DNA from: Byssovorax sp.
GTDB taxonomy: Bacteria > Myxococcota_A > Polyangia > Polyangiales > Polyangiaceae
Length of the DNA stretch: 32,000 nt
Direction of reading: 5' to 3'
Assembly: GCA_040006075.1 (NCBI GenBank)
Contig: JBDTXR010000004.1
Coordinates: 21,457-53,456, forward strand
Shown here: piece by piece, positions 13,445 through 13,579 of the stretch
Layout: every line of letters begins with the position of its first letter
Position numbering within the stretch: the stretch's first letter is position 1
Notes under the pieces: model-generated
Databases searched by the model: none
What the model saw: the letters and a program-made list of their open reading frames with translations, nothing else
What the model was told of the DNA's origin: nothing
Position numbers and translations under genes: made by a program

Positions 13445-13579
13445 GCAGATGTAGCTCAGTCTGGTAGAGCGCCTAAACACCGTCTTCACCCTCTTTGCCT
13501 CGCTCCTCGGAGCTGGGTCGCTCGAGGACGGTTATCGATTCTAATCGGGTTGTCGCGGGTTCGAATCCCGCCATCTGCT
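13445..13579 (+). tRNA. tRNA-shaped gene with ~61-nt insertion in the anticodon loop (exons would give loop ATTCTAA, Arg-TCT-like)
   Basis: The acceptor GCAGATG/CATCTGC is perfect. The D-arm GCTC-AGTCTGGTA-GAGC and T-arm GCGGG-TTCGAAT-CCCGC are canonical, and T73 plus CCA are encoded. However, 83 nt lie between position 26 and the T-stem instead of about 22. The anticodon stem CCTAA/TCGGG is possible, and the insert self-pairs (CCGTC...CCTCG / CGAGGACGG). Confidence 0.5.

Follow-up and report, generated by a model that had tools for sequence, protein, structure and literature searches.

The 32,000-nt stretch of Byssovorax sp. DNA analyzed here (the window) carries, at positions 13445–13582, a tRNA-shaped element that is probably a non-coding RNA of the Y RNA class. 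It appears to be built on an unpermuted tRNA frame and to be the partner of Rsr, the Ro60 orthologue encoded 123 nt upstream. Its structure, conservation, synteny, and motif identity were established computationally. The first-pass annotation had weighed two ideas for the gene, a novel small intervening sequence and a tRNA scaffold that displays a helical arm, the reverse of YrlA in architecture and possibly a Ro60 ligand. The latter is now strongly supported by the synteny with rsr, the identity of Y RNA motifs, and the colinearity with the Rfam YrlA model over a tandem junction, from which Rsr binding would be expected. The former does not agree with an insert that is conserved, matches the Ro60-site consensus, contains a covarying stem, and is accompanied by a would-be anticodon loop that varies between genomes.

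Structure of the element

Reading of the sequence at 13445–13582 identified a 7-bp acceptor stem, a D arm, a T arm, a discriminator, and a CCA, just as the tRNA shape described earlier had implied. These parts make up a tRNA body with the T loop UUCGAAU and the elbow tertiary pairs, including a Levitt pair between G15 (13459) and C48 (13554) that covaries in the family (G:C or A:U). Since the CCA occupies 13580–13582, the RNA end falls 3 nt past the previously assigned end at 13579; the D-to-T spacing is likewise 84 nt rather than 83 nt. The features are as follows, where A4 and A5 denote alignments of the family.

11640–13322, + strand: rsr (Ro60 orthologue) with TROVE and Ro60 vWA domains (Pfam E 3.8e-44 and 7.5e-65); start codon at 11640 with a GGAGG ribosome-binding site
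13445–13451, + strand: acceptor stem 5′ strand GCAGAUG, partner of CAUCUGC at 13572–13578; 7/7 pairs with compensatory changes in A4 and A5
13454–13470, + strand: D arm GCUC-AGUCUGGUA-GAGC with A14, G18, and G19 present; D stem 100% paired family-wide
13471–13479, + strand: linker G-CCUAA-ACA, in which CCUAA (13472–13476) is a possible 5′ strand of an anticodon-type stem with UCGGG (13545–13549), 4/5 pairs
13480–13487, + strand: upper stem, CCUGCUUC region, CCGUCUUC, equivalent to the 3′ strand of a canonical Y RNA; pairs with 13524–13531
13488–13496, + strand: pyrimidine-rich bulge ACCCUCUUU, equivalent to the Y RNA bulge across from the bulged C (alignment A4; Ro60 site as in PMC4726728)
13497–13518, + strand: lower (Ro-site) helix, GCCU (13497–13500) with GGGU (13515–13518), with a 4-bp extension GCUC-CUCG-GAGC as its cap
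13519–13523, + strand: bulged C13519, then GCUC; family consensus C-GA(A)
13524–13531, + strand: upper stem, GAGGACGG, equivalent to the 5′ strand of a canonical Y RNA; contiguous 8-bp stem with 13480–13487
13532–13536, + strand: segment aligning with the conserved CUA of YrlA (A4, PMC4726728, consensus lines of Rfam Y_RNA and sbRNA, YrlA alignment)
13535–13548, + strand: pseudo-anticodon hairpin UCGA-UUCUAA-UCGG with 4 bp and a 6-nt loop, an alternative to the far stem
13550–13554, + strand: variable loop UUGUC (sequence reading)
13555–13571, + strand: T arm GCGGG-UUCGAAU-CCCGC, 100% paired family-wide; covarying pairs 4/5 in A4 and 5/5 in A5
13572–13582, + strand: acceptor 3′ strand CAUCUGC, discriminator U13579, and encoded CCA (13580–13582); pairs with 13445–13451

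A long arm of ~52 nt replaces or accompanies the anticodon arm. By comparison, this arm reproduces the Ro60-binding module of Y RNAs, which comprises an 8–9-bp upper stem, a pyrimidine bulge, a bulged C with G(A), a lower helix, and UUAUC; the Ro60 site has been described as a helix with a bulged C, a bulge on the opposite strand, and a UUAUC motif (PMC4726728). The first-pass annotation described the insert as folding on itself through CCGTC and CCTCG with CGAGGACGG; the comparison instead supports pairing of CCGUCUUC with GAGGACGG, and of GCCU with GGGU. The lower helix of the window copy consists of 4 bp plus the 4-bp extension, compared with 7 bp in vertebrate Y RNAs, and its cap occupies the place of the 5′ and 3′ ends of a canonical Y RNA. 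Where the family is most conserved, this copy differs from the consensus, having GGGUCGCU (13515–13522) in place of GGGCCGAA. The bulged C and the following G are kept, the next two bases are degenerate, and G13520–U13496 is the only pair that can form after the bulged C.

The anticodon region of the window copy can be drawn in two ways. A far closing stem CCUAA/UCGGG, as proposed at first, is possible with 4/5 pairs around a 68-nt “loop”, but it contains one A–C mismatch and competes with the local hairpin UCGA/UCGG (4-bp stem, 6-nt loop UUCUAA); neither forms an arm of 5 bp and 7 nt. The placement of the insert is hence ambiguous in this copy: it may belong to the anticodon loop, or it may separate the D arm from an anticodon-like hairpin. 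Both placements occur within the family.

The rsr locus and the family of related elements

The element and rsr sit within a 34-tRNA array on the same strand, and their spacing is well inside the range of about 4 kb taken as YrlA-like. A promoter and terminator scan of the array gave nothing above shuffle expectation that bears on the element. Four stand-alone Y RNAs are also predicted at the window locus, including those at 11340–11408, 11520–11586, and 13726–13797; the first two share the 8-mer GGGUCGCU with the element, and the third aligns with the nematode sbRNA family. A stand-alone RNA of Sorangium (locus L001, 8524–8592) was aligned end to end with Rfam Y_RNA (RF00019) at 32 bits and E 1.5e-4. 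The motif GGGCCG-N-GGUUAYC is common to the tRNA-shaped elements and the stand-alone hairpin RNAs found alongside them. Nearly every Polyangia locus has a capped Ro-type hairpin ahead of the rsr start, where it covers the Shine–Dalgarno sequence. The capped form thus recurs in a second context where Rsr binding would make sense.

A covariance model (R1) was built from a seed of 20 homologues from which the window copy was left out. R1 scored the window copy at 104.9 bits (E of about 5e-26, R1 E-values being rough), and ordinary tRNAs at 52 bits or less in the 360 kb scored. It found 36 members adjoining rsr in 24 Polyangia genomes and the window, each with at least 71 bits, of which 5 have an encoded CCA. 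An RNA-only pattern scan of metagenomic and viral contigs added 56 further members, which brings the family to at least 92 copies; metagenome pattern hits were used only if confirmed by the covariance model. Approximately half of these pattern hits were rejected as false positives that came from the reverse strand of ABC-ATPase Walker-A coding sequence. No match to the element region was obtained in a BLASTN search of 50,697 phage records. In all 23 of these independent loci that contain rsr, every element lies on the rsr strand at a distance of 13–1498 nt, and copies are found upstream and downstream of rsr and also in multiple copies. The arrangement of rsr with a tRNA array recurs in Sorangium, Chondromyces, Byssovorax, Haliangium, and Kofleriaceae. 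The copy of Sorangium cellulosum So ce56 maps to NC_010162.1 complement(7886502..7886628).

All helices of the family covary, including the 8–9-bp stem of the insert. In A4, 95.5% of cells are paired and double changes occur at 22 of 32 pairs; none of 500 shuffles matched the observed values, and slid controls gave 40–54% pairing. The independent metagenomic set A5 showed 92.3% pairing and double changes at 26 of 32 pairs, where the counts of both alignments are biased towards the model to which they were fitted. The upper stem of the insert alone has double changes at 7/9 pairs in A4 and 9/9 in A5. Recurring in 92 copies, the insertion is hardly the random indel of a decaying pseudogene.

Sequence conservation within the family is highest in the D and T loops, with the insert next. 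Its elements follow the order upper stem, pyrimidine bulge, UU-GCCCG, cap loop, CGGGC, bulged C, GA, upper stem, and UUAUC. The consensus of the lower helix is UU-GCCCG-loop-CGGGC (UUGCCCG/CGGGCCGA), and the Ro module reads UU-GCCCG / CGGGC-C-GA with a 4–6-nt pyrimidine bulge opposite. This consensus has the bulged C, the opposite bulge, and the conserved bases on both strands that characterize the Y RNA helix. GGUUAYC is near-invariant in A4; motif conservation in A5 was partly imposed by the search pattern.

Comparison with known RNAs and alternative explanations

The window element was called neither by ARAGORN nor by the Rfam tRNA model RF00005 at the gathering and E ≤ 10 thresholds. Taking a tRNA finder call or at least 29 bits as membership of RF00005, several homologues pass as tRNAs (40–49 bits) with an insertion of 57–65 nt. 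For YrlA (RF02553, threshold 69 bits), no gathering-threshold match was found in the window or nine related loci. Positions 1–114 of this model were aligned over a tandem-copy junction at locus L015 (7919–8044) with 25.4 bits and E 0.005, which is below the gathering threshold, and the alignment runs in YrlA order: Ro 5′ strand, UA, T arm, D arm, and Ro 3′ strand. A full-length alignment was obtained only across this tandem junction. The element itself has a different order, acceptor 5′ strand, D arm, Ro arm, T arm, and acceptor 3′ strand, and its Ro helix is capped, so that it lacks the YrlA architecture. A partial YrlA match at 13408–13470 (28.7 bits) was discarded, as it joins the T arm of a tRNA-Arg to the D arm of the element; such tandem-tRNA artefacts were filtered out of YrlA searches by Chen et al. 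(PMC4201824). The match to Y_RNA (RF00019) scored below the gathering threshold. YrlA carries the motif GNCGAAN0-1G in its Ro-binding 5′ strand (PMC4201824), which is fitted by the Sorangium-type GCCGAAG; many members have GCCGAC, GCCGGA, or similar, and the window sequence GUCGCUC departs from it. YrlA was not matched in the Ro60-encoding mycobacteriophage McWolfish at the gathering and E ≤ 1 thresholds. A literature search found no Y RNA described as combining an open acceptor end with a capped Ro helix, and no paper pairing Ro60 with Sorangium.

The element shares much with YrlA (Chen et al. 2014, PMC4201824; structure by Wang et al. 2018, bioRxiv 10.1101/312249). Both adjoin rsr on the same strand and consist of two modules, a Ro60-type bulged helix and an L-shaped tRNA mimic whose D/T elbow is conserved. 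Both have the Levitt pair and, following the upper stem, a UA, and both follow the cyclic order Ro 5′ strand, (variable or anticodon hairpin), T arm, acceptor stem, D arm, and Ro 3′ strand. YrlA, however, ends in its Ro helix and has a closed acceptor hairpin, whereas here the acceptor is open (7 bp, discriminator, and CCA) and the Ro helix is loop-capped. In addition, the Ro site here belongs to the metazoan/Deinococcus type, having a bulged C and conservation on both strands, and many members retain an anticodon-like hairpin. [quoted passage not shown] That product is in two pieces of about 82 and 65 nt because its Ro helix is also open, whereas the present element would give the same shape in one continuous chain without nicking.

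With Deinococcus radiodurans Yrn1, metazoan Y RNAs, and nematode sbRNAs (RF00019, RF01656), the family shares GGNCCGA..., the bulged C, CUUUGCCC/CUUGACC, the opposite-strand bulge, the 8–9-bp upper stem, and UUAUC. In those RNAs, however, the Ro helix is made from the termini, and the loop falls short of a complete tRNA. We know of no Ro60 orthologue shown to bind a capped, rather than an open-ended, helix. The b7a-tRNA (Burroughs & Aravind 2016, via 10.1101/312249) is described as having an SPFH/Band-7 partner, with RtcB; the descriptions on which this comparison is based mention no Ro-site arm. A Band-7 or RtcB domain was not found in the 20 window ORFs scanned. Bacterial tRNA genes with group I introns resemble the element in having an insertion in or beside the anticodon arm of a tRNA-shaped gene, but the insert here is 52–61 nt, lacks the group I core, and is conserved as a helix of the protein-binding type.

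The anticodon-like region bears most directly on whether these genes could decode. A 3–7-bp stem with a 7-nt CU-NNN-RA loop stands at the pseudo-anticodon position in about half of the family, and in type-N members, 22 of 30 have anticodon-like 7-nt loops with U33 and R37, against 1.7 in shuffles. In type-F members, a far anticodon-type stem covaries and encloses the Ro arm, and this far stem is used by the Rfam tRNA model in Sorangium L001. Together with the textbook acceptor, D, and T arms, the encoded CCA, and the acceptance of several homologues by the tRNA model, these observations would suit a tRNA gene, tRNA-Arg-UCU-like in the window, whose novel small intervening sequence is removed to yield a decoding tRNA. 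We consider this highly improbable. Over 92 copies the insert is conserved in sequence, with a consensus resembling a protein site and with covarying stems, which one would not expect of a spacer that is to be cut out. The would-be triplet varies among orthologues and paralogues (GUU, UCC, CAU, UGA, GCC, GAU, and others), the local loop in the window has 6 nt, and the Sorangium copies and one gene of locus L017 (9148–9269), which has no hairpin at the pseudo-anticodon position, are without a usable anticodon arm. Reading ATTCTAA as an Arg-UCU-like loop with a meaningful anticodon is not borne out. Group I introns possess a P1–P9 catalytic core and are typically >200 nt; the insert is far smaller, as was already pointed out in the first-pass annotation, and no group I or other intron family in Rfam matched the window element down to E ≤ 10. 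Moreover, no bacterial splicing endonuclease is known (10.1101/312249), and the array already holds a tRNA-Arg(UCU) at 14665–14737. A tRNA that stays functional and chargeable with the extra arm in place, serving in decoding or as an aminoacyl carrier and constitutively tagged for Rsr (e.g., for quality control or delivery of a specific tRNA), is improbable as well, though somewhat less so. It would account for the open acceptor with discriminator, the CCA of some copies, the intact elbow pairs, the enriched type-N loops, and locus L017, which has six family genes and zero ordinary tRNAs. Against it, paralogues with near-identical acceptor stems bear different triplets, and orthologues at the same position switch the triplet or lose the loop, a pattern that a fixed decoding identity would not allow. 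The ~52-nt arm at position 26/27 or in the anticodon loop should also clash with the ribosomal decoding site, and the tRNA body resembles no particular isoacceptor: best identities were 62–73% to assorted tRNAs with an inconsistent winner, and a single value of 79% was ARAGORN’s own tRNA-Asn call within the L015 element.

An equally improbable explanation is that the element acts in cis within a polycistronic tRNA-rsr transcript, as a decoy or processing signal that titrates or autoregulates Rsr, and is not a trans-acting Y RNA. The conserved hairpin over the rsr Shine–Dalgarno sequence implies that mimics of the Rsr site are used in cis at these loci, and the element always lies on the rsr strand within 1.5 kb. 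A full tRNA frame with covarying stems and a Levitt pair is needless for a simple decoy, however, and rather predicts excision as a discrete RNA; the copies on both sides of rsr, and in multiple, also speak against it. Least probable of all, and scarcely credible, is a decaying tRNA pseudogene with a random insertion. The window copy is indeed uncalled by ARAGORN and Rfam, and, measured against the family consensus, both its Ro motif and its pseudo-anticodon hairpin are degenerate. Yet full-length homologues including the insert occur in 24 genomes of several families and in metagenomes, every helix has compensatory changes, and the variant 8-mer of this copy is found again in the two well-folded stand-alone Y RNAs that share it.

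Proposed mechanism and implications

Under the preferred assignment as an Rsr-associated Y RNA, the element would be transcribed together with the surrounding tRNA array. Its 7-bp acceptor stem, its D/T elbow, and the CCA encoded in this copy may then allow the enzymes that normally process tRNA 5′ and 3′ ends to release it as a ~138-nt RNA. As the Ro helix is closed by a loop where Y RNAs have their termini, the order of the element corresponds to a circular permutation of YrlA. Rsr is predicted to bind the capped bulged helix. The L-shaped tRNA body could function as an effector or tethering module that recruits PNPase or a tRNA-binding factor, or that gates the Rsr cavity; such a role of the tRNA-like module was earlier proposed for YrlA and Yrn1.

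A bolder scenario, to which we assign a low probability, is that the family represents the unpermuted, ancestral-type state of bacterial tRNA-like Y RNAs. The RNA might be a single chain matured by RNase P and the CCA enzyme, perhaps even charged, with a Ro arm that grew from or beside the anticodon arm. YrlA could have arisen later through circular permutation, for example from tandem copies as in L015, and not from ordinary dimeric tRNAs. The CU-NNN-RA loops with their hypervariable triplet might let Rsr particles sense or decoy anticodon-directed nucleases or other tRNA damage in tRNA-array islands.

Bacterial Y RNAs are circularly permuted tRNA mimics with a closed acceptor stem, and their origin is debated, a dimeric tRNA being one model. 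Here the two modules of YrlA appear in normal tRNA order, with the acceptor end free and the Ro60 site on a capped internal arm, in a family that ranges over large-genome myxobacteria and environmental and viral contigs. This family may provide a natural “missing link” between tRNAs and Y RNAs. It leads to the prediction that a capped helix can be bound by Ro60 orthologues, and it would explain how Y RNAs mature from a tRNA-array transcript through the tRNA processing machinery. Its natural variants (types N and F, variable loops) form a tractable set for asking what the tRNA module recruits. The island of tRNA array, rsr, and multiple Y RNAs, together with the Shine–Dalgarno hairpin, suggests an autoregulated RNA-surveillance module tied to tRNA supply.

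rsr, its tRNA array and the element

The open reading frame ending at 13322 was identified as a Ro60 orthologue (TROVE domain, 3.8e-44; Ro60 vWA domain, 7.5e-65), and the true start of this gene, rsr, is the ATG at 11640, with a GGAGG ribosome-binding site ahead of it. By ARAGORN, the window contains 34 ordinary tRNA genes between 9890 and 16973, each on the forward strand; rsr lies within this array, among whose 34 genes no tRNA-Ser was found. It is followed by tRNA-Arg(CCU) and then by a tRNA-shaped gene with an extra arm (the element), 123 nt from the rsr stop codon. The element was called neither by ARAGORN on the whole window nor by a window scan with the Rfam tRNA model. 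Its minimum-free-energy fold retains the acceptor, D and T stems, with the extra sequence forming a long arm.

Parts of the element (13445–13582, forward strand), read from the sequence, 5' to 3'
Acceptor stem, 5' strand: GCAGAUG, then UA
D arm: GCUC-AGUCUGGUA-GAGC
Stretch between D arm and T arm: 84 nt
T arm: GCGGG-UUCGAAU-CCCGC
Acceptor stem, 3' strand: CAUCUGC, then discriminator U and CCA, ending the element

A strong hairpin (GAGAGACGAGC-UCCGA-GGCUCGUCUCUC) directly follows the rsr stop codon at 13323–13361. Downstream of the element, an unusually purine-rich A+G spacer (ACAAGAUCAAGAACAAGAGAGGAGAAGAAAAGAGCAGAGAAUGAAUGAGAAGAG) spans 13583–13654 in an otherwise GC-rich region, and a weak sigma-70-like match is present at 13639–13666.

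A search with the Rsr protein among one-genome-per-species bacterial contigs gave 26 loci, nearly all from Polyangia, with identities to the window's Rsr of about 75% in Sorangium and 92% in a Byssovorax MAG; Chondromyces, Haliangium and Kofleriaceae also matched. In these genomes rsr usually sits inside an array of 10–38 tRNA genes; the array is large (up to 38 genes in Chondromyces) and covers nearly all amino acids in the window and in L014, L015, L019, L020 and L022. BLASTN located full-length homologues of the element, including the insert, shortly 3' of rsr in most loci. The island of rsr, Y RNAs and tRNA array is conserved across Polyangia.

The insert as a probable Ro-site module

With the Sorangium copy (locus L011) as example, the insert of the family reads CCGUUCUCC-ACCCC-UU(U)-GCCCG-UUC-CGGGC-C-GA(A)-GGAGGACGG-UUAUC. 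It contains an 8–9-bp upper stem with a pyrimidine bulge on one strand, while the other strand has one bulged C and, after it, G-A paired with U-U; beyond these lies a sequence-invariant lower helix, and UUAUC stands directly 3' of the upper stem. In Sorangium-type copies (GCCGAAG) this motif overlaps GNCGAAN0-1G, the motif of the known bacterial tRNA-like Y RNA, YrlA (PMC4201824), from which the GUCGCUC of the window copy departs. The strand motifs GGGCCG-N9-10-GGUUAYC and CUUUGCCC/CUUGUCC are common to the insert and the stand-alone hairpin RNAs of every such locus. Since these hairpin RNAs share the motif and two of them align with Rfam Y_RNA or sbRNA models, it appears to be the local Rsr-site consensus. 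Y RNAs place the 5' strand (GGNCCGA...) ahead of the 3' strand, and their termini close the helix. In the element the topology differs: the "3' strand" precedes the other, a 3–4-nt loop or a short additional hairpin caps the helix, and it is the tRNA acceptor stem that supplies the open ends.

Insert of the window copy (forward strand), assigned by model alignment and folding
13480–13487 / 13524–13531: upper stem
13488–13496: bulge ACCCUCUUU
13497–13500 / 13515–13518: lower helix GCCU/GGGU
13502–13513: 4-bp extension with CUCG loop
13519: bulged C
13520–13523: GCUC
13532–13536: UUAUC

The window copy has GGGUCGCU where the family consensus has GGGCCGAA. Two stand-alone Y RNAs of this locus (~11340–11408 and ~11520–11586), both well folded, contain the same 8-mer, which speaks against decay and for a variant specific to the lineage.

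Other Y-RNA-like features of the window
11605–11642: Ro-site-like capped hairpin just 5' of the rsr start (UUGCCCGG-loop-CCGGGC-C-GGAGG); GCCCGG 11611–11616 / CCGGGC 11621–11626, bulged C11627, GGAGGG 11628–11633, ATG 11640
~11340–11408 and ~11520–11586: stand-alone hairpins, fold z = −2.0 and −5.6; 8-bp lower stem GGACGGGU/AUCCGUCC, bulged C, upper stem, UUAUC
~13729–13795: small canonical Y RNA directly after tRNA-Trp (GGCGGAC-C-GGA-GCUCGUGGG-UUAAC ... CCCACGGGC-GCUC-UUU-GCCCGCC); nematode stem-bulge RNA (sbRNA) model, 27 bits, E 0.002
14063–14192: third Y RNA type, between tRNA-Asp and tRNA-Ala

The two stand-alone hairpins upstream of rsr each lie directly 3' of a tRNA-His, so that the pair of tRNA-His and Y RNA is duplicated in tandem, and Sorangium loci carry a homologue upstream of rsr. 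The Sorangium counterpart (L001 8524–8592) of the small Y RNA at 13729–13795 aligned over its full length with the metazoan Y_RNA model of Rfam at 32 bits (E 1.5e-4), below the gathering threshold of 38. These RNAs resemble animal Y RNAs strikingly closely.

In the rsr leader hairpin, the strand after the bulged C is the Shine-Dalgarno GGAGG. The hairpin is kept in nearly all Polyangia loci (L001–L014, L016, L017, L019, L020, L022, L024 and L025). This arrangement suggests that Rsr may repress its own translation through this leader mimic of a Y RNA.

In the RNA at 14063–14192, a terminal Ro-site stem (GGCGGGC-C-GGA.../...UUUGCCUGUC) surrounds a small hairpin, then a T arm (GAGGUUCAAAUCCUC), then a hairpin resembling an acceptor stem; a D arm is absent. 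It is YrlA/YrlB-like, Rfam models did not detect it, and L022 has a homologue. Other Y-RNA/tRNA chimeras occur at L002 2909–3031 and L014 9243–9340, where a Ro-site 5' strand precedes an apparent near-complete tRNA body; Rfam gave a partial tRNA match within the former (2961–3020).

YrlA runs in the order Ro 5' strand, variable region, T arm, closed acceptor hairpin, D arm and Ro 3' strand, and was termed a circularly permuted tRNA by its authors (10.1101/312249). The element has the identical cyclic order, opened at the acceptor stem. Two L015 copies lying 2 nt apart provided a natural test of this permutation: the full YrlA model (positions 1–114) aligned over their junction (7919–8044) at 25.4 bits (E 0.005). 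Here cggCgaAUGC matched GGGCCGAUGG, the conserved CUA matched UUA, T and D arms matched their counterparts, and aAaAcUuGucGcc matched CAAACAU-UUGCCC. This supports colinearity with YrlA, in keeping with the "inverse of YrlA" architecture offered as one alternative in the first-pass annotation. The element was not assigned to YrlA, as the junction score is far under the 69-bit threshold.

Covariation and two architectures of the family

A covariance model (R1) was trained on 20 homologues, excluding the window copy. Over 360 kb (window plus loci) it gave 36 matches at 71–140 bits, with all ordinary tRNAs at 52 bits or less; 13445–13582 (104.9 bits) was the sole member in the window. Several genomes are multi-copy (Chondromyces 3, L015 4, L017 6, L020 2). 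In L017, a Polyangiaceae MAG, six tRNA-shaped Y RNAs stand in series downstream of rsr (7906–9553), with near-identical acceptor stems and differing anticodon-like triplets (GUU, UCC, CAU, UGA); no ordinary tRNA was called in this 13.6-kb locus.

In the 36-sequence alignment, standard pairs occupied 95.5% of cells and two-sided changes occurred in 22/32 pairs, values reached in 0/500 shuffles; sliding the 3' partners reduced pairing to 40–54%. Covariation was observed in 7/7 pairs of the acceptor stem and 7/9 of the outer helix of the insert, the inner helix showing almost no sequence variation. The Levitt pair 15:48 alternates between G:C and A:U across the family, so selection acts on the tRNA L-shape.

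An independent set was obtained by scanning viral and metagenomic contigs with the RNA-only pattern TTGCCCG-N2-8-CGGGCCG-N7-12-GGTTAYC. About half of the matches were dismissed as chance matches inside ABC-ATPase genes. R1 confirmed 56 additional full-length members in 38 loci, whose alignment showed 92.3% pairing, double changes in 26/32 pairs and covariation throughout the upper stem (9/9). An Rsr gene, 49–80% identical to the window's, is present in 23 of the 38 loci, and in all 23 every element lies on the rsr strand, 13–1498 nt away, upstream or downstream. The remaining 15 loci are short or cut close to the element, save one 427-kb contig (IMG/VR UViG_3300028920_000001, 426,960 bp; loci L028/L030/L082), in which the 10.5 kb examined carried no Rsr gene. 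This contig and other IMG/VR contigs with members (L029, L031, L033, L036, L039 and L040) are classified as viral.

In about half of all members, UUAUC is followed by a 3–7-bp hairpin with a 7-nt loop, so that the D arm and an anticodon-like arm flank the Ro arm (type N). In the metagenomic set, 22/30 such loops carry U at position 2 and a purine at position 6, the frame of an anticodon loop, versus 1.7 in shuffles (maximum 6); their middle triplets are hypervariable, with GUU, UCC, CAU, UGA, GCC, GAU, GUC and others. In type F this local hairpin is absent, and a stem around the Ro arm is formed instead by the 5 nt that follow position 26 and the 5 nt preceding the variable loop. These far stems covary (CCGGA/UCCGG, CUGGG/CCCAG, GAAGA/UCUUC, AUUGU/ACAAU and others), and at least 4 contiguous pairs were formed in 25/92 members versus 7.3 after exchange of linkers among sequences. 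Hardly any member combines the two types. Sorangium belongs to type F, an arrangement that its alignment to the Rfam tRNA model also gives, with a 57-nt insertion. The type of the window copy is ambiguous: the stem CCTAA/TCGGG, noted earlier as able to close an anticodon arm, is possible as a far stem with one A-C mismatch, and a near hairpin (UCGA/UCGG, 6-nt loop) is the alternative.

Nature of the element

An intron-bearing tRNA, the small intervening sequence first considered, is contradicted by the conservation of the insert, its size, the unstable "anticodon" of the family and the lack of any intron-model match. That instability also makes a decoding tRNA with an extra arm unlikely, although the conserved loop frame leaves it a low probability. 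A decaying pseudogene is excluded by the covariation. A purely cis-acting decoy is possible, but it leaves the full tRNA frame unexplained. The evidence best fits a Y-RNA-class partner of Rsr that has the topology of a tRNA; what the analysis itself shows is structure, conservation, synteny and motif identity.

No Rfam family covered the element in scans of the window and related loci. Among the papers searched, none described a Y RNA whose acceptor end is open and whose Ro helix is capped, although an earlier mention may exist, and none linked Ro60 with Sorangium. Chen et al. removed matches overlapping tandem tRNAs (PMC4201824), and such loci would therefore have been hidden.

As a partner of Rsr, the element would be transcribed as part of the array transcript and matured like a tRNA. 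Its capped bulged helix would be the place where Rsr binds, and the tRNA body may serve as a tether or effector module, by analogy with proposals for YrlA and Yrn1. Across the rsr loci, a Ro site appears to be combined with parts of a tRNA in several distinct ways.
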